A stretch of DNA of 64,000 nt from Acidimicrobiia bacterium (lineage in GTDB: Bacteria; Actinomycetota; Acidimicrobiia; Spongiisociales; ZC4RG35), in contig OZ244034.1 in NCBI GenBank assembly GCA_965215185.1, positions 1,376,001-1,440,000 on the forward strand. The letters run 5' to 3'. This document shows positions 11 through 52,245 of the stretch, piece after piece. Every line of letters begins with the position of its first letter. The first letter of the stretch is position 1. The notes under the pieces are model-generated. The model worked only from the letters and a program-made list of their open reading frames with translations, did no database searches and had not been told where the DNA came from. A program made the position numbers and the translations under genes.

Positions 11-66
11 CGGGCCTCAGGTTTATTGGGTGGCGGACAGTTTCACCTATCTTAGGATGAATCTCC

Positions 67-129
67 ATTATATACCACTCATCTCTATTTTATACATATT
101 TTTCTCCACTTTATCCCACCTACATCCAA
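67..129 (-). promoter_or_regulatory. mraZ promoter region with three 10-bp-phased (G/T)TGG MraZ-type boxes and a TATAAT -10
   Basis: Minus strand TTGG-ATGTAG-GTGG-GATAAA-GTGG (129-106) in an AT-rich patch; TATAAT at 72-67. Confidence 0.6.
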
Positions 130-597
130 CAGATCGGTCTTTGCCAGCAAGCCGGGAGCGGTCACCTCCCACGTGAGACCACCACCCATTAACTCCCCTG
201 CCCTCCACCCGACTCCCCCAAGCGACCCGGATCAGACGCGAACCCTGTGCGCAAGCCACATTTTCCCCTCCCAGGTGGGGAAACGTCGCTCTACCCAGCC
301 CTTCATTTTCGGGAAACAGCGACTAACCCGCGAAATTGCCCAATCCCCCCTTCTCCCCACTAGGGCCCACCCCCGCCTCCACCTTGCCATCGGTCAAAGC
401 ACGCTCCGCCAGTCCCCTGAGGGGTGCCTTTTGAGAATATGATCCCTCCGCACGGCGCACGACGCGTCAGAGCAGACCGCAAAGGTTATTCGACTCTTTC
501 ACTCGATAAAGGTCGACCCCTACCCCAGTGAAATTGCGCCATTCTCGGACCTTCTTGCTCTTTGGGCGGGTCTCCACCCGCCTTTTTGGCGCAGAAT

Positions 598-45003: not shown

Positions 45004-45552
45004 TCAAGTCTCTTTGAGCATCTCGGCGTAACAAGCGGACCGCTCGGTCGGTGTCCATAGCGAGCAGTCGGCACACTTGGCGCCGTTGCTGACCTCGGTC
45101 TGGTAATAGAGGCAGCAGGCCTTGCGCCCCCACACCCATCGCAGATCCTCGCCGATCCGGACGACCCGACCCGACCGGCGTAGACCGCCGCGCGCGGTGG
45201 CGAAGAAACCCTCGACAAGGCGGCTGATCCGTTCGGCATCGTCTGAGAGCGGCCCAACGAAGGCGCCGAAGGATGCGGCACACGACGACCCGACATTTCC
45301 CCACAGCAACGCCTCACCGATGAGCATCGACCGGTGAACGGCATCGACGAACGAAGCCAGGTGCTCATCGATCAGCACACGATGGAGCACGGCCAAGTCA
45401 CCGTCGGCCTCCACCAACTCCGCGCTGTCCAGTCGGACGGCGTTGAGGCGATGCTGGTCCAAAGCGATCGCCGTGGTCTCCGGGCGGACCGAAAGCACAT
45501 CGCCCGATAGCACAAACGACCCGATAGCAACCGAAGCGATCCGATAGACGTA
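45004..45552 (-). pseudogene. 3' part of FhuF-like ferric-siderophore reductase (2Fe-2S), split by an IS
   Basis: LWGNV and R..CCLYY...C..C motifs; joins in frame to 47493-47284. Confidence 0.85.
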
Positions 45553-45790
45553 CCGTTCCTTTTTGGATAGATGATTGTTCCTATCCCGGCGTCCCGAACG
45601 ATCTTGAACGCCTGTGCAACTCACTAATCAGGGTTCCGTCCCGACGGTCGTAACACCCACAGAATGTGAGCGCTCGCGCCGGTCGTTGTCTGATGTGTGC
45701 GCCATGCCAGTTGCATTAGCGGTCTGCTGGACAGTTGCTTTCCCGTACCGATCCTCCGGTAGGCAAGGGCTCTGACTGCTTTTGCGCTTC
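45553..45790 (-). ncRNA. Predicted omegaRNA scaffold overlapping the tnpB 3' end and the right end
   Basis: Hairpins TACCG/CGGTA (45761-45746), GGCGTTC/GGACGCC (45612-45588) and GGATAG/CTATCC (45586-45565); loop CGTTC is complementary to terminal GAACG. The 5' limit is a guess. Confidence 0.55.
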
Positions 45791-47202
45791 TCGCTATATC
45801 CCTGGCTTCTTCTGCCGATCACCACTGCGGCCGCCTGGTGGCGGTCGCCGCGTTGTCGGCGAGATCTGTCTAAAGGCTTCTTCCAGTATCTGGCTCCCCA
45901 GATACTGGTGTAGGCCGGATCCACCGCTATCACGGTCATACCGTTGCGGTAGGCCGCAGAGGCAATGGTGTGGACGAACTTGGCGGTGGGTAAACCGCAC
46001 ACCTTGCGGCGGGTGGTCTTGCCTGCCTTGCCTCTGCGTCCTCTTTGTCTGGTGCGAATGTCGGTGAAGTTGAGTTTCTCGATAGCTATTACCGTCACAC
46101 CCTGGCGTTGTGCCCACTTGACGAGTTGGCTCACCGTTTCCCTAAGCGCACCGAGACGGTGCGCCGAAGAACCCCTCTCAGGGATGTTCTTTCTGATAGG
46201 CCTGCCTACCGGGTTACCGTGAACATCCAAAATCCGTGCGTCCACATGTCCCGAGTTGAGATCTATCGCCAGACACCTGCCTAACTTAGCGGCCTCTTTG
46301 ACTCCGCGTTTCTCCTTGGGTGGCTGAGACCACGACGCGGTGATGTACCAGCGCTCTCTATCCGCATCAAAGCGGATGGAGTATCCGACCGCCCGGTCTG
46401 CGCTGGCCTGCGCTTCCCACTCGCCAGCGAGGTGATGCCACTGCACCGGATTGGAAAGCCAGTAGGTAGGTGTCCTGCCCGGCGTGTTGGACAGATAAGC
46501 AAGGGGCGAAGGTAGGCGGATAGTCACGGTGTATTCATCGTTGCCGTGAGGGGCCACCCTGATGGTCTCGTTACCGAACGCCTTACCCGCCTCGCCGTCT
46601 GCGGAGATGAACATCCGCTTGGTGTCCCAGTGGTAGCGCCACTCCTCCAAGGTGAGTCCTGCTTCTTTCAGGTTGTGGCGATTGAAAGCCAGGCGGTTGC
46701 CGCCCAAGACTATGGAGAGACGGCCCTCCGCCAGGCGCTGTTCGGTGTCGGACAACCTGGCAGCGAGCTTCTGGCGGCGGCGCTGCTTCTGGTAACGCTC
46801 GGAACGAGTCGCGTATCCTCGCTTCTTCTTCTTTCCCTTGCCGACCGGCAAAGCGAGGCGGCGATCCAACTCGGCCAACTCCTTACGATCCCGATACTCC
46901 AAGTCTTCCAGGTTGAGTAGTTCTCTTTCCCACATGTCATCGGTAGTGCGGGTAATGGCACCCGCCCAGCGGGAAGAACAATGTGGAGTCAGGGAGCGTT
47001 TGCGATTGGCGCGCCCCAGGTGCTTGTCACCCGCTCCGAGGCGACACCGGGTTGCCAGGTCGGAACGCAACAGACCACCCAGGTGGTCACCTATCTCTCG
47101 CAACACTGTCTCGTCGGAGTCCGATGGGAACAGACGAGTTCTGGCGCTCACCGCCCGCGGGGGCCCTACCACAAAAGGATCGATCAGAGCACGCCTGGTC
47201 AC
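45628..47202 (-). CDS. tnpB: TnpB-related RuvC protein (actinobacterial long form)
   Basis: RuvC-I LAIDLN, RuvC-II IAIEKLNF, VDPAYTS, RuvC-III-like DRHQAAAVVIGRR; Arg/Lys-rich. Confidence 0.85.
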   Translation of the reverse strand: MTRRALIDPFVVGPPRAVSARTRLFPSDSDETVLREIGDHLGGLLRSDLATRCRLGAGDKHLGRANRKRSLTPHCSSRWAGAITRTTDDMWERELLNLEDLEYRDRKELAELDRRLALPVGKGKKKKRGYATRSERYQKQRRRQKLAARLSDTEQRLAEGRLSIVLGGNRLAFNRHNLKEAGLTLEEWRYHWDTKRMFISADGEAGKAFGNETIRVAPHGNDEYTVTIRLPSPLAYLSNTPGRTPTYWLSNPVQWHHLAGEWEAQASADRAVGYSIRFDADRERWYITASWSQPPKEKRGVKEAAKLGRCLAIDLNSGHVDARILDVHGNPVGRPIRKNIPERGSSAHRLGALRETVSQLVKWAQRQGVTVIAIEKLNFTDIRTRQRGRRGKAGKTTRRKVCGLPTAKFVHTIASAAYRNGMTVIAVDPAYTSIWGARYWKKPLDRSRRQRGDRHQAAAVVIGRRSQGYSEKRKSSQSPCLPEDRYGKATVQQTANATGMAHTSDNDRRERSHSVGVTTVGTEP

Positions 47203-47255
47203 AACGACACTCGCATCATGGTCTGCTGCAAAAAGGTTCCGCAGCCATCAACAAC

Positions 47256-47283
47256 AGTCTACTGAAACGGGAACAGTTGGCAA
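47256..47283 (-). promoter_or_regulatory. Putative promoter at the element left end
   Basis: TTGCCA-N16-TAGACT beginning at the first base of the element and pointing to tnpB. Confidence 0.45.
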
Positions 47284-47493
47284 CCCCTGGACAAAAAGCG
47301 ACATTGCCACCATGTCGTCGTCGGTGCCCCAGCCTGCGGCAGTTGACCGCCCGACTTCCAGCAGCCGCGGCGGGTGGGCGACCAGATCGTCGCAAGGCAA
47401 CCACTGCAGACCTTCGCTTGCGTCCACCGTGATCTGCAGGTAATCGATGGTCGACAACAGCTCTTCCACGACCTTCCGCCCCCGGTCTTCCAT
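47284..47493 (-). pseudogene. 5' part of FhuF-like ferric-siderophore reductase (70 codons)
   Basis: GGGAG RBS, ATG 47493, MEDRG...VAMSLFVQG up to the IS junction. Confidence 0.8.
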
Positions 47494-47569
47494 GTCGCTC
47501 CCTTCAGTACTGCTGTGGACGCCTTGGCCATCCCGAAGATACAGGTTGGAAACGGAACCTTGTTTTTAC

Positions 47570-47639: not shown

Positions 47640-49085
47640 ATGCGGATTGCCTGTCTGCTCGTCTCTCATCTGAGAGCCAAGTCTGAGATGCGCCGCGACG
47701 CGCATCTGAAAAACCAACCGGCAGTGATCATCGATCAGACCGGACCCATCCCCCGGGTGGTAGATCACACTCCCCAAGCCTTTCAGGTGAACGCTGGAAT
47801 GCCATTGGAGCAGGCCATATCCCGCCATGAGAACACCCTCGTCCTAGAGGCGGACGAGCCCTATTACCAGAAAGTGTTTGACGATGTGCTCAAGTCCCTG
47901 GCGGACGTGAGCCAACGTGTGGAGGGTCTGGAACTTGGCACGGCTTATGTGCGCCTTGACGGTTCGAGAGCTCTGTACGGCGGCGAGGACCGTTTGGTGT
48001 ACACCCTCTTGGGAGTCATCCCTCACGATTTGGAACCGGCGGTGGGAGTGGGTGACGCCAAATTCCCCGCCTTCGTAGCAGCGCGGACCGGAAAGGCGCT
48101 GGAAGTGACCTGGGTCCCTTCCAATACCACTCGCTTCCTCTCCTCCCATTCCATCGACCTTCTTCCCCTCTCGGCGGAGATCAAAACAAGCCTGCGCCTG
48201 TTTGGCCTGCACACCATGGGAGAAGTCGCCAAGCTGCCCAAAGGGCTCCTCACCGATCAGTTCGGCTGGGAAGGATGGCAAGCGTGGTCTCTCTGCAACG
48301 GAGTAGACGAGCGTCCCCTGATTCCCATGGAAGCGACAGCGACCATCGTCGAACATACCTCTTTTCCTGACCATGCGGCCTCTTTGGAACTCTTTTTGGT
48401 AACAGTGGACATCCTTTTGAAGAAGGCCTTTCACCGGCCGGGCATGTTGGGAAGACAGGCAACCGGCGTGACCTTGGAATGCACTGCGGAGGGCGCCCCG
48501 TCATGGAAACAGTCGTTCCATTTCAAGCGGGGTATCCACAGGTGGGAGGAAGCCTTTTCGATCATCAGAAACCAACTGAAGATGAACCCTCCCCGGATCC
48601 CCATCGAAGAGATCCGATTGACCCTGACCAATCTCAGCGGAGCGTCAGGCGTGCAGTTGGGGCTCTGGGCGGATCCCAAGAAAATCAAGTGGCGACGGAT
48701 CAGGGAAGTGGAGAAACAACTTCAGGCCCGAATGCGAGGAGACCACATCCTGCACCGGGTGGTACAGGTGGCTCCCTGGCATCCGGCGCCGGAGATGCGG
48801 GCCTTCCAGGTTCCGATTGATCGATCGGGAAGTTACCCCATCAAACCCGTCGTGACGCCCACCCGGGTACCCGTCCAGGAAGGCGCTCATCACCAACCGA
48901 CGGCCGTGCTATTGGGAGACCGATGGCATCAAGTGAACCGAGTGGCCGATCTTTGGACGTTCGACCTGTGGTGGTTGCCGAAACCGATCACCCGCACCTA
49001 TTACCGGCTGAGCGGAGATGACGGGCGGCAGATCACCCTTTTCTATGACCAGAGAGGGAACCACTGGTACAGGCAGAGTGGATAA
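47640..49085 (+). CDS. imuB: ImuB/ImuY-like inactive Y-family polymerase with a C-terminal DUF6504-like domain
   Basis: Y-family fold lacking the catalytic acidic motifs; clamp-like QLGLW; tail W..D.WW...R.YYRL...LF.D...W; upstream of dnaE2. Confidence 0.75.
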   Translation: MRIACLLVSHLRAKSEMRRDAHLKNQPAVIIDQTGPIPRVVDHTPQAFQVNAGMPLEQAISRHENTLVLEADEPYYQKVFDDVLKSLADVSQRVEGLELGTAYVRLDGSRALYGGEDRLVYTLLGVIPHDLEPAVGVGDAKFPAFVAARTGKALEVTWVPSNTTRFLSSHSIDLLPLSAEIKTSLRLFGLHTMGEVAKLPKGLLTDQFGWEGWQAWSLCNGVDERPLIPMEATATIVEHTSFPDHAASLELFLVTVDILLKKAFHRPGMLGRQATGVTLECTAEGAPSWKQSFHFKRGIHRWEEAFSIIRNQLKMNPPRIPIEEIRLTLTNLSGASGVQLGLWADPKKIKWRRIREVEKQLQARMRGDHILHRVVQVAPWHPAPEMRAFQVPIDRSGSYPIKPVVTPTRVPVQEGAHHQPTAVLLGDRWHQVNRVADLWTFDLWWLPKPITRTYYRLSGDDGRQITLFYDQRGNHWYRQSG

Positions 49086-49098
49086 ACAGGAGGGATGT

Positions 49099-52000
49099 GT
49101 GTCTTCGAGCTATGTGGAACTTCACGCAAAAAGCTTCTACTCCTTCGGGATAGGGGCATCGCACGTCCACGAACTCCTCGCCCGAGCCAAGCAGTGCGGC
49201 TACTCAGCCATGGCTCTGACCGACACCAACCTGTGCGGCGCTTTGGAGTTCGCCCGCCTGGCCAACAGCTTGGGCATACAACCCATAACCGGCGGAGAGT
49301 TGACCCTGGAAGACGACACGCGATTGACCCTTTTGGCCCGCACCCGAAAAGGGTATGCCAATCTCTCTCGGCTGTTCACCCTGGCCAATAGCACCGACCG
49401 CCAGAACCCCCGGCTCGATCCCAAGCATCTGCCGACGTACTCGCAGGGACTGATCCTTCTCACCGGAGGGCGCCAAAGCCGCCTCTCTCAACTGACTCTG
49501 TCCGGCCGGTTTCAGCAGGCCCGGGAGCTTCTCCATGGCTATCGGGAGTGGTTCGGCTCAGACCGGGTGTATGTGGAGCTTCAACAGAACCTCTTGCAAG
49601 GTGACACCCGGCGCAACCGGGAACTGTCATCTCTGGCGCACACCATGGGCGTGCCGTTGGTGGCCACCAACGATGTCCACTACCACTCGCCGAAGCGATA
49701 CCGGCTGCAGAACGCGCTGGTGGCCGCCCAACACAACATCACCATGGACGAGGCTCTGCAATTCATCAGACCCAACCCTCACCTCTCTCTGAAGTCTCCA
49801 CAACAGATGAAGCGGCTGTTCCGCCTTTACCCCGAGGCGGTCTCCAACACTGCGACAATCGCCGATCAATGTTCTTTCGATCTCAGTACCGATCTTGGAT
49901 ACAACCTCCCCGAACCGCAAGTGCCGGAAGGGCATACTCCCGACAGCTACCTTCGCGAGCTCTGTCACCAAGCCGCTATCCGGCGCTACGGAGCCATGTC
50001 TCCACCCATCGCAGAACGCTTGGCAGAAGAGTTCCGACTGATACAAATACACCGTCTGGCCGGCTTCCTACTGCTGTATCGGCAGATCGCGCAGATCGCG
50101 CAGAAGATCATGGAAGAAGAGGGTTTGGTGCGTCCTGGCACGCCGCTGGAAAAGCAGCCGCCGGGAAGAGGGCGAGGCTCATCGGTGGCCCTTTTGGTGG
50201 GATATCTGATCGGCATCAGTCATGTTGATCCTCTGAAGTGGAACCTCACTCTGGAACGGTTCATCTCAGAGGACACGAGCCTGCTTCCCGACATCGACCT
50301 CGACTTTCCCCGCCATCTCAGAGACAAGCTCATCGAGCGGATCCATCAGCACTTCGGCGCCGAATACGCAGTACTCACCGGCGCCATCTCCACCTACACG
50401 GTGAAAGGGATCATTCAGGATCTGGGCAAAGCGTTCGGACTGCCCAACCAGGACCTGAGACTTCTATCCAAACAGATCCACTCCCATGACGCGGCGGACC
50501 TCAAAGGAGAGATGTTGGAACTGCCCGCTTTCCGGGACCGGGTGGACGCTTACGGGTGGAAGAACCTGATCGAGATTGCCCCCCAACTGATGGGGGCGCC
50601 CAAACACCTCAGCCAACACGTGGGAGGCATGATTCTCAGCAGCACCCCCATACCGGAGATGGTTCCCATTCGAAAAGGCGCCATCGAAGGGCGTTTCATC
50701 ATGGATTGGAACAAGGACAATGTCGCCGACGCCAACTTCGCCAAGATCGACCTCCTCTCTCTGCCGGCGCTCGACCAACTTCACGAGGCTTTCGATCTGA
50801 TCGAGGAAAGGGAGGGCACAAGACCCGATCTGAGCCGCCTCGACCCCGAAGATCCCCAGGTTTACGGGATGATCACCGAAGGCCGATCCAAAGGGGTCTT
50901 TTTGCTCCAGTCGCCCGCCCAGTTGAAGATGGGACGCCGCCTTCGGCCCAAGAACCTCCTCGATCTTGCCTATCAGGTGGCGCTGATTCGTCCGGGGGTC
51001 GGCGTGCAGGGAAGCGCGGTCTCGCTGTTCGTGGACAGATACCGCCACGGCGCATCCTGGGAGTATGACCATCCCTTGGAAAAACGGGCTCTGGAGCGTG
51101 GATGTGGGGTCATCGTATGGCAGGAGCAAGTGGTCCAGCTCATCATGGATGTGGCGGGAATGACCGCCGCTCAGGCCGATGAGATACGAAGATCCTTCGC
51201 TCGCTCCAACAACCAGCACCTGATCGCCATGCACTGGAAAGAATTCCTGAAAGGCGCCCAGCGCCAGGGTGTTTCCAAGCAAACCGCGCGGAAGATCTTT
51301 TCCAAGATCAACGGTCACTACATGTTCCCAGAATCCCACTCGCATGCCTTTGCCATCACTGCCTACCAGGTGGCTTGGCTCAAGCGCTACCACCCTTTGG
51401 AATTCTTCACGACTCTCATCAACAACCAGCCCATGGGCTTCTACCCGCTGGAAACCCTCAAACAAGACGCCAAAAGCTTCGGCGTGCCGTTTCTGCATCC
51501 ATGCATCAACCGAAGCGGCGTCAAATGCGTTCCCGAAGACGGCGCTGTGCGGCTAGGTCTGGGCATCGTCAAAGATGTGGGAAACCGGTCCGCAGAAGCA
51601 ATCGTTGAAGAGCGCGAACGCAACGGTCCCTATTCGGGCGCTGGAGACCTGGTACAACGCACCGGCCTGAAACCTCAGGCCGTGATCTCTTTGGTGATGG
51701 CGGGAGCTGTAGACGGTATGGTGCCCAACCGCCGGGCCGCTATCTGGGACGCGGGGCTTTCTATCCGCCCCTCTCGCAACGGACAGAGGGTCATGGACAC
51801 GACCAGAGGAATCAAAAAACCCGATCTAGCCGATTTCACCGACTACCAGAAAATGGCGAGCGCTTATGAGGTGATGGCCATCTTTCCGGGAGGCCACCTC
51901 ATGGAATATCTGCGGGAAAGCCTCGGCTCAGACGTGCTGACCACCGCCGAGGTGGAGAACTGCGCCGAAGAGGAAGATGTCCTGGTGGCGGGCTGGCCCA

Positions 52001-52245
52001 TCGCCCGACAACACCCCCGCGGAATAGACGGCACGGTGTTCGTGACCATTGAGGACGAGACCGCAGACGTGCAACTGATCATCTGGCCGGATGTCTTCAC
52101 TCGTTACAAAAAGCAACTCAAGAGCCAGGTGATCCTGGCGCGGGGTGTGATCTCCCGATGGGACGGCACCACCTCCATCATCGTTTCATCTTTGGAAGCA
52201 GTCGACATCCCAGTGTCGATGCCCGCCGCCCACGACTGGCGTTAG
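49099..52245 (+). CDS. dnaE2: Error-prone DNA polymerase DnaE2 (ImuC)
   Basis: PHP domain, GRGSS, PDIDLDF, SQHVGG, FPESH, NNQPMGFY and C-terminal AHDWR (variant of the DnaE2 S[RH]DF[RH] tail); GGAGG RBS. Confidence 0.93.
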   Translation: MSSSYVELHAKSFYSFGIGASHVHELLARAKQCGYSAMALTDTNLCGALEFARLANSLGIQPITGGELTLEDDTRLTLLARTRKGYANLSRLFTLANSTDRQNPRLDPKHLPTYSQGLILLTGGRQSRLSQLTLSGRFQQARELLHGYREWFGSDRVYVELQQNLLQGDTRRNRELSSLAHTMGVPLVATNDVHYHSPKRYRLQNALVAAQHNITMDEALQFIRPNPHLSLKSPQQMKRLFRLYPEAVSNTATIADQCSFDLSTDLGYNLPEPQVPEGHTPDSYLRELCHQAAIRRYGAMSPPIAERLAEEFRLIQIHRLAGFLLLYRQIAQIAQKIMEEEGLVRPGTPLEKQPPGRGRGSSVALLVGYLIGISHVDPLKWNLTLERFISEDTSLLPDIDLDFPRHLRDKLIERIHQHFGAEYAVLTGAISTYTVKGIIQDLGKAFGLPNQDLRLLSKQIHSHDAADLKGEMLELPAFRDRVDAYGWKNLIEIAPQLMGAPKHLSQHVGGMILSSTPIPEMVPIRKGAIEGRFIMDWNKDNVADANFAKIDLLSLPALDQLHEAFDLIEEREGTRPDLSRLDPEDPQVYGMITEGRSKGVFLLQSPAQLKMGRRLRPKNLLDLAYQVALIRPGVGVQGSAVSLFVDRYRHGASWEYDHPLEKRALERGCGVIVWQEQVVQLIMDVAGMTAAQADEIRRSFARSNNQHLIAMHWKEFLKGAQRQGVSKQTARKIFSKINGHYMFPESHSHAFAITAYQVAWLKRYHPLEFFTTLINNQPMGFYPLETLKQDAKSFGVPFLHPCINRSGVKCVPEDGAVRLGLGIVKDVGNRSAEAIVEERERNGPYSGAGDLVQRTGLKPQAVISLVMAGAVDGMVPNRRAAIWDAGLSIRPSRNGQRVMDTTRGIKKPDLADFTDYQKMASAYEVMAIFPGGHLMEYLRESLGSDVLTTAEVENCAEEEDVLVAGWPIARQHPRGIDGTVFVTIEDETADVQLIIWPDVFTRYKKQLKSQVILARGVISRWDGTTSIIVSSLEAVDIPVSMPAAHDWR

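Follow-up and report, generated by a model that had tools for sequence, protein, structure and literature searches.

A tnpA-less IS607 element of an Acidimicrobiia bacterium encodes a TnpB-type protein with a D-E-H RuvC site and a candidate guide RNA at its 3' end

An open reading frame (ORF) of 524 amino acids on the minus strand of a 64,000-nucleotide stretch of Acidimicrobiia DNA (GenBank assembly GCA_965215185.1, contig OZ244034.1, positions 1,376,001 to 1,440,000; hereafter the window) probably encodes a TnpB-type nuclease of a 1,731-bp IS607 element without tnpA, which would be guided by RNA from the 3' end of the element. The fold, the motifs and their family-wide conservation, the element borders, the empty insertion site, the association with tnpA and the covariation within the RNA support this reading directly, and from them we infer RNA binding, a transposon-associated motif (TAM), DNA cleavage and a catalytic role of His455, the residue that stands in place of the third RuvC aspartate. 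The odd motifs of the protein, which had been pointed out in an earlier note made from the letters alone, are traits of its lineage and not signs of decay.

Results

A conserved histidine occupies the RuvC-III position

The ORF and its active-site codons are located in the window as follows.

45628..47202, minus strand: tnpB-like ORF, 524 aa, with a GTG start, a D314-E375-H455 RuvC site and no zinc finger
46261..46263, minus strand: codon of Asp314 (RuvC-I, AIDLN), invariant in the family alignment A1; Asp in 236 of the 239 relatives with a residue there
46078..46080, minus strand: codon of Glu375 (RuvC-II, AIEKL), Glu in 228 of 228 relatives; aligns to the Glu of canonical ATEDLN
45838..45840, minus strand: codon of His455 (RuvC-III position), His in 212 of 215 relatives; aligns to the Asp of RDxNAA

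The translation contains the motifs CLAIDLN (D314), VIAIEKLNF (E375), VDPAYTS and RGDRHQAAAVVIGRR (H455), and its inspection revealed no pair of cysteines after PAYTS. Conservation was followed in A1, an alignment of 28 relatives that also provided the family profile, and in 252 family members with a length of 300 aa or more that were aligned to this profile. The invariant residues of A1 include D314, E375, D428, H455, R464 and R465. Among the wider relatives, Asp was observed only once at position 455, indicating that the family does not possess a D-E-D triad, and a CxxC motif between YTS and His, which are 20-27 residues apart, was present in none of 217 proteins. Thus, the translation and the family counts confirm what the earlier note had read from the ORF, namely intact RuvC-I and RuvC-II acids, a His replacing the Asp and the lack of a finger after PAYTS. 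The possibility it raised that the Asp of 'GDRH' (residue 453) might serve as the third catalytic residue was rejected, since this position is Asp in just 45 of 216 relatives, Thr in 89 and Ser in 72. His455, and not the adjacent Asp453, is the conserved residue, and the missing finger is likewise a trait of the lineage.

The assignment of His455 was derived from a profile-profile alignment (hhalign) of A1 with A6, comprising four canonical TnpBs taken from the window's own genome, in which H455 falls on the Asp of canonical RDxNAAxNI with a probability of 52% and an E value of 1.4e-4. Moreover, AIEKLNF is paired with ATEDLNV, VDPAYTS with VNPRHTT and R-H-x-A-A-x-V-I with R-D-x-N-A-A-x-N-I, and the family shows gaps opposite the CxxC...CxxC finger of the canonical TnpBs. 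Replacement of Asp by His at this position in the last helix has precedents within the RNase H fold, comprising PIWI proteins (DEDH vs DEDD), Thermus RuvC and the RuvC domain of Cas9.

The ORF does not represent a chance frame, as a word-seeded search that scored 8,000 candidates yielded more than 2,887 homologues with lengths of 520-570 aa, which with few exceptions are unnamed or 'hypothetical', and a search with the A1 profile retrieved 3,333 clusters (50% identity), including 721 with E <= 1e-30. The family is common in Streptomyces, present on mycobacterial plasmids and also found in Acidimicrobiia, and its members are mostly annotated as 'hypothetical protein'. Two homologues carry additional domains that possibly reflect read-through or fusion gene calls: P0100 (711 aa) has a partial resolvase domain (PF00239) fused in frame at the N-terminus, and P0064 (638 aa) a PF20060 region at the C-terminus.

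The predicted structure resembles TnpB and Cas12 effectors over its whole length

Since a PDB search with the single protein sequence gave only chance matches to tail-tube proteins (E about 1), and the search with the family profile just weak Cas12f matches (E 0.24-1), the tie to solved structures rests on the comparison of folds. The AlphaFold2 model generated with A1 has a mean predicted local distance difference test value (pLDDT) of 79.6 and a predicted template modelling score (pTM) of 0.68, with low confidence confined to residues 1-4, 379-400 and 476-524. When this model was compared with the PDB by Foldseek, the best matches were almost all type V effectors (AsCas12f with E 2e-8, CasX, Cas12k/g/m), with a probability of 1.0 for Cas12f entries. 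Pairwise alignment with VIA-align placed 325 residues on Cas12f (9i8y_A; Z 15.0; model 15..479), 283 of 341 residues on ISDra2 TnpB (8exa_A; Z 13.3), 283 residues on 8h1j (Z 12.6) and 294 residues on ISFba1 TnpB (Z 10.8). The match to Thermus RuvC (Z 11.0, 142 residues) comprises the RuvC core only. The model thus predicts the whole-protein WED-REC-RuvC fold of the TnpB/Cas12 superfamily, in which His455 is found at the N-terminal end of the last helix (454-466), the place taken by the RuvC-III Asp in TnpB and Cas12 proteins.

ISDra2 TnpB (IS200/IS605) and Cas12f share this architecture with the window protein, and here, too, the 3' end of the gene together with the right end would be expected to supply the guide RNA. 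They differ in their size of ~400 aa, their D-E-D site and their CxxC...CxxC finger, and the transposase partner in ISDra2 is of the Y1 type. Within model residues 16-470, ~170 residues of the 524-aa protein have no counterpart in ISDra2 TnpB, and most of them would fall into the helical region 28-195, which may be read as an enlarged REC domain. In the model, this region contains the helices 77-116 and 133-159 joined by a Lys/Arg loop (119-132). The long basic helical insert described in the earlier note is therefore real, yet it is conserved family-wide in A1 and does not represent a private insertion. The extra length of the protein is accounted for by this region together with the tail 476-524, which is modelled as disordered. 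We read the protein as a member of a very large, mainly actinobacterial TnpB lineage in which a short Trp-rich loop stands in place of the zinc-finger (TNB) module and the helical REC region has grown.

The element is inserted at GGGG in a FhuF-like gene

The borders of the element and the interrupted gene are given below.

45553..47283, minus strand: whole tnpA-less IS607-family element, 1,731 bp, left end TTGCCAACTG..., right end ...AGGAACGG
47203..47283, minus strand: left end (LE), abutting the tnpB start where full-length copies have tnpA, as seen in a five-copy alignment
47284..47287, minus strand: GGGG target site, which contains the GG crossover and is the likely position of the TAM
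45004..45552, minus strand: C-terminal part of the split FhuF-like gene (Pfam FhuF and FhuF_C)
47284..47493, minus strand: N-terminal part of the split FhuF-like gene, contiguous in sister species
45533..45552, minus strand: flank directly 3' of the right end, TACGTCTATCGGATCGCTTC, candidate guide part of the transcript

The element starts with the letters TTGCC at its 5' end, the left-end motif being located at 47270-47287, and its right end stops at 45553. A 57-bp block of the LE is common to copy B, where it is found ~585-640 bp upstream of the tnpB start of that copy. The FhuF-like orthologues of sister species are uninterrupted, with open frames of 257-291 aa, and the empty site reads ..GTCCAGGGGTA.., or ...TTCGTCCAGGGGTATGCC... 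in locus L096, or ...CAGGGATAC.... Comparison of the occupied site with the empty site GTCCAGGGGTA reveals a net gain of 1731 nt without duplication. In line with this, one contig of the DNA run X5 (side 30, likeness threshold 90) joins position 45551 to 47283, skipping exactly 1731 nt; this contig may derive from a related strain. Taken together, the element is an insertion sequence that entered at GGGG and split a FhuF-like ferric-reductase gene, and public data contain both occupied and empty alleles, or else a close strain that lacks the insertion.

Elements of the IS607 family end in GG and integrate at GG downstream of G-rich DNA, they lack inverted repeats and duplications, and their TnpBs employ G-rich TAMs (PMC13565253). 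The element described here likewise ends in GG and is inserted at GG in G-rich DNA with neither inverted repeats nor a target duplication. GGG is found directly 5' of TTG in all 13 insertions with an identified left end. The terminal pattern GGAAC[GA]G located the right end of 68 loci, 63 of which are among a set of 80 loci that contains 17 without a match; the ending ..AACGG in these 68 loci is a circular count, as they were found by that very pattern, but loci found without it still end in ..CGG. Of the 68 loci, 61 continue with T and 7 with C after the right-end GG.

Sister copies are mobile and carry an IS607-type transposase

The window's genome (G000) harbors two full copies of the gene, which are 85% identical, plus fragments, and the likeness between the two copies begins at the start codon and ends 75 nt downstream of the stop. 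The gene fragments at G000:C1 1643551-1643643, 1650865-1650948 and 505860-505973 (L003-L005; 74-90% identity over 28-39 residues) probably stem from copies that have decayed. The protein encoded upstream of the second full copy contains the motif YARVSSSGQ and reaches 164.6 bits against a cut-off of 110 with the NCBIfam model for the IS607 transposase. The related metagenome-assembled genome OZ244918.1 contains ten copies, of which nine are ~99% identical over ~2,280 bp and one is 88% identical, all of them in unrelated flanks. The unit consists of a left end GGGTTGGCAACTG..., a 202-aa ORF, a 545-aa TnpB-like ORF and a right end ...AAGGAACGG, and the 202-aa upstream protein (locus L009) matches the NCBIfam model 'IS607 family transposase' with 138.4 bits (cut-off 110).

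In the five-copy alignment, the left end is fused to the tnpB region at a distance of ~80 nt upstream of the start codon in the window copy and in one copy of the related genome G011, indicating that tnpA is deleted in both of them; the two are located in different flanks. Since tnpA is missing here and present in sister copies, the window element is a non-autonomous derivative. In loci from other genomes, a tnpA-like gene is located directly upstream in at least 22 of 80, a lower bound obtained with one distant query at E 1e-5. In a Mycolicibacterium plasmid record, an 'IS607 family transposase' overlaps a family member annotated as 'hypothetical protein', and in a Streptomyces plasmid record a solo copy is annotated as 'IS200/IS605 family accessory protein TnpB-related protein'. 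As in H. pylori IS607 and M. tuberculosis IS1535, the sister copies thus comprise a serine-recombinase TnpA with an N-terminal helix-turn-helix, tnpA overlaps the start of tnpB, and solo-tnpB derivatives are common. The differences from these elements are the D-E-H site and missing zinc finger of TnpB, the loss of tnpA from the window copy and a 3' RNA without a match in Rfam.

When the window's genome and 40 relatives were searched with the protein as query, the gene was present in two of the 41 genomes, G000 and G011, and the remaining 39 were without a match at E <= 1e-20. G011 contains seven matches, some with internal stops. In view of this patchy distribution, a domesticated, vertically inherited gene was rejected. 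Canonical TnpBs with RDxNAAxNI and a CxxC finger are found in seven places of G000 above the NCBIfam cut-off (L102-L109 among them; G000:C1 1844435-1845568, 2450373-2451452, 1952783-1953958, 1862173-1862754 and others), and two TnpB lineages consequently coexist in one genome.

These data bear on the question whether the protein could be an inert RNA-guided DNA binder resembling TldR or the Cas12m-type repressors. The protein lacks the canonical third Asp and the zinc finger, which is reminiscent of TldR and other nuclease-dead TnpBs, in which the canonical RuvC triad is altered as well, and domesticated nuclease-dead relatives of TnpB are known (PMC10705468). However, D314, E375 and H455 are near-invariant over hundreds of diverged relatives, whereas the published inactivated groups lose these catalytic positions (PMC10691335). 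Moreover, TldRs are reported as immobile proteins with guides against fixed promoters, while the gene studied here resides within a mobile element with its own transposase, with nine ~99% identical copies in unrelated flanks of one genome and no match at E <= 1e-20 with the protein query in 39 of 41 related genomes. The candidate guide corresponds to different flanking DNA at each insertion, which argues against a fixed regulatory target. We therefore consider an inert binder quite improbable, and the RNA-guided DNA-binding protein that the earlier note had offered as one of two options is not favored.

The 3' end of the element contains a covarying RNA structure

The structured region and two of its hairpins are located as follows.

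45553..45790, minus strand: omega-RNA-like structured 3' region, running from ~55 codons before the stop through the 75 nt beyond it up to the element terminus
45587..45613, minus strand: hairpin P4 (GGCGUUC / GGACGCC) with the near-invariant loop AAGAUCGUUCG, supported by pair counts in the alignment A4
45565..45586, minus strand: terminal hairpin P5 (GGAUAG...CUAUCC), located before AAAAAGGAACGG, from folding

Copies from Streptomyces, Nonomuraea, Acidimicrobiia and other groups share the conserved 3' end of the element. In 47 of the 80 loci, the stop codon (TAG in 36, TAA in 10 and TGA in 1) is located 6-7 nt from the end of the element and lies within the terminal motif TAGGAACGG (e.g. L021 5650-5659 and L009 5614-5624). 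In these loci the end of the ORF consequently extends over the terminal ~230 nt, so that the scaffold is fully translated, whereas in the lineage of the window the ORF stops 75 nt before the terminus. The seemingly conserved peptide PEDR corresponds to the hairpin loop CCRGAG(N)GAU, and as the length of this loop differs by one base between lineages, its conservation operates at the nucleotide level.

To define the RNA sets, eight of ten near-identical Poriferisocius copies were left out and identical sequence windows were collapsed. In A4, which aligns P4 (8 pairs) in 53 distinct sequences including that of the window, with rows L040 and L077 re-anchored by hand, 89.9% of the cells are paired compared with 65.4% in shuffled alignments. 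Cells with double changes amount to 107 versus 30.9, and the covariation score to 0.665 versus 0.219, and none of 500 shuffles reached the observed value in any of these three measures. All 8 pairs show double changes, a number equalled by 52 of the 500 shuffles, and in slid controls 51% or less of the cells were paired. For P5, the letters of the stem vary between lineages while pairing is kept. RNAalifold analysis of 28 Streptomyces-type ends of 228 nt (A5; 28 of the 31 loci of the group with 371-378-nt spacing, with L032, L034 and L039 left out owing to poor alignment) yielded 48 pairs in about seven helices, 19 of the pairs with compensatory changes. When 60 diverse 230-nt ends were aligned by MAFFT, RNAalifold recovered only the CCGUUC/GGAACGG pairing, a weak result attributable to an alignment that is too gappy. 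The sequence of the window folds into P1-like, P4 and P5 hairpins, as does the Poriferisocius copy. Thus, as in other members of the superfamily, a structured RNA with covarying helices is located at the 3' end of the gene and ends at the terminus of the transposon.

RAGATH-18 is reported to serve IS607 TnpB (PMC13565253). A search of positions 45300-47500 against Rfam (4,227 families, E <= 1) gave no match, and the 3' RNA is therefore not recognisable as RAGATH-18 or as another described family. Two metatranscriptome runs, both from one study, yielded contigs with a likeness of 95-99% on 45555-45828, which provides a weak hint. The same two runs contain no contigs on most of 45869-47400 except for a short piece (45985-46025); this pattern is not evidence for a separate small RNA.

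The loop of P4, CCGUUC (45606-45596), is complementary to the terminal GAACGG (45558-45553), both are near-invariant, and the left end contains the similar CTGTTCC. On mixed evidence, this complementarity could reflect either a pseudoknot or repeats bound by the transposase. The pseudoknot was not adopted, since uncompensated mismatches occur in L028, L037, L048, L057 and L070, and it is further disfavored by loci that would pair a CCGUCC loop with a GAACGG terminus. Compatible with it are a matching double change in L026 (CCGCUC/GAGCGG) and wobble pairs in L019 and L036; the termini used for this comparison were located with a pattern that fixes GGAAC[GA]G.

The near-invariant loop and terminus, the similar motif in the left end and the lack of clear support for the pseudoknot would also suit a protein that is not guided by RNA at all, that is, a structure-specific RuvC-like accessory nuclease whose 3' structure serves as a transposase-binding, terminator or mRNA-stability element, and Thermus RuvC is indeed among the fold matches. 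We regard this as very improbable, as the match to RNA-guided effectors extends over the whole length including WED and REC, beyond the RuvC core. In addition, serine recombinases use double-stranded sites, and compensatory changes in at least five helices over ~230 nt would be left unexplained. Most likely, a structured omega-RNA scaffold is encoded by the final ~230-275 nt of the element, which overlap the disordered C-terminal tail of the ORF, with the guide being a 3' extension into the flank.

Genes adjoining the element

A Y-family polymerase-like gene is located next to the element at 47640-49085 on the plus strand (Pfam IMS, E 1.3e-11), followed at 49018-52245 on the plus strand by an ORF of 1,075 aa resembling a putative error-prone DnaE2-type polymerase. 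Together, the two genes resemble an imuB-dnaE2 mutagenesis cassette.

Discussion

The D-E-H site is invariant in a large family that is carried by mobile IS607-type elements, which is the pattern expected of a working transposon nuclease, and the window protein is most likely an active homing nuclease. In the mechanism that we propose, modelled on IS605 and IS607 TnpBs studied elsewhere, TnpA would excise the element, being supplied in trans by the full-length copy at ~2.414 Mb of G000:C1. The 3' RNA would act as omega-RNA with the adjacent flank (TACGTCTATCGG...) as guide, and the complex of TnpB and RNA would recognise the vacated site by means of a G-rich TAM, roughly GGG, followed by ~16-20 nt of the flank. 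Cleavage of the vacated site and recombination with a sister copy would then restore the element. The TAM would correspond to the G-rich target left of the insertion, and because the occupied right end presents CGG and not the GGG of the empty site, the donor would be spared.

Several observations weigh against this interpretation. The RuvC site lacks the third metal-binding carboxylate, and the probability of the hhalign match that places His455 is modest. The scores with the curated family models stay below the cut-offs, with 35 bits against 100 for NCBIfam guided_TnpB (residues 353-433), 30.2 against 32 for TIGR01766, and 16.2 against 26.3 for Pfam Cas12f1-like_TNB, covering profile positions 3-28 only. 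Single-sequence folding is only weakly better than that of shuffled sequences (z -2.16 and -1.49), and the contigs from the RNA libraries stem from a single study and may reflect DNA carry-over. The window copy has no tnpA and differs by 15% from the other copy in its genome, and thus gives no sign of recent activity in G000. In the literature searched, we found no biochemical study of a TnpB with a D-E-H site concerning cleavage, RNA binding or the TAM.

The combination of traits has been catalogued before. Altae-Tran et al. (2023) describe RIIIr-4 as a major TnpB clade in which the RuvC-III Asp is changed to His and the C4 zinc finger is lost, while the other major clades keep the finger (PMC10691335). 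There, the clade is classified, modelled and argued to be active on the basis of conservation. In the passages of that paper and the literature searched, no biochemical characterisation of RIIIr-4 was found, and Nety et al. (2023) merely list it among the representatives of a tree. As both the His at RuvC-III and the loss of the C4 finger are family-wide here, the family would belong to this already catalogued kind of TnpB, being matched by traits and not by placement in a tree. In contrast to the archaeal members linked to ribbon-helix-helix (RHH)/MazE and the viral representation that the paper highlights (PMC10691335), the family of the window is actinobacterial and IS607-borne, and tblastn revealed no match to it in 50,697 phage records. 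The rearranged-site nuclease of a poorly characterised clade that the earlier note had put forward as its other option fits the invariant D-E-H site and the mobile IS607 elements, and is the better of its two proposals. As findings that would contradict it, the note had named a normal D-E-D site and placement in an already characterised clade. The former was not found, the position being held by His455, whereas the traits are those of a clade already classified and modelled in print, RIIIr-4.

The D-E-H site might also retain nuclease chemistry for a changed job, the protein being a nickase, a cutter directed at single strands or RNA, or an enzyme whose RuvC site mainly matures its own transcript into the guide RNA, so that the target would be bound or nicked. 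Such a shift would be consistent with the exchange of a metal-binding Asp for His in 212 of 215 relatives, as well as with the loss of the zinc-finger/TNB module next to the RuvC site (0 of 217). Similarly, Altae-Tran et al. propose 'potentially altered substrate specificities' for rearranged sites (PMC10691335), and TnpB reportedly generates omega-RNA by processing of its own mRNA (PMC10278001). However, the family shares its lifestyle with the double-strand-cutting IS607 TnpBs, including the tnpA partner, the GG ends and the multi-copy spread, and the data do not call for a different activity. We consequently deem such a change of job unlikely.

For the RNA-guided homing nuclease that we favor, we advance one further proposal with considerable reserve, as a possibility rather than an expectation: the finger-less D-E-H site may operate by a chemistry unlike that of all characterised TnpB and Cas12 proteins, in conjunction with a new ~230-nt omega-RNA architecture and a GGG-type TAM. 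Such a changed chemistry might mean a different metal preference, a nick or a staggered cut.

Beyond what has been published on TnpBs of this kind, we provide the borders of the element, its empty site and its tnpA-less structure, together with a candidate TAM and a model of the RNA; the borders, the candidate TAM and the RNA model make the whole lineage directly testable. Should the D-E-H site prove active, TnpB could dispense with both the third carboxylate and the zinc finger, which would bear on metal use in the RuvC domains of the Cas12 lineage. If the chemistry is indeed changed, this abundant family, found in Streptomyces, mycobacterial plasmids and Acidimicrobiia, would stand as a distinct class among the compact RNA-guided enzymes, with high-GC bacteria as its native hosts.

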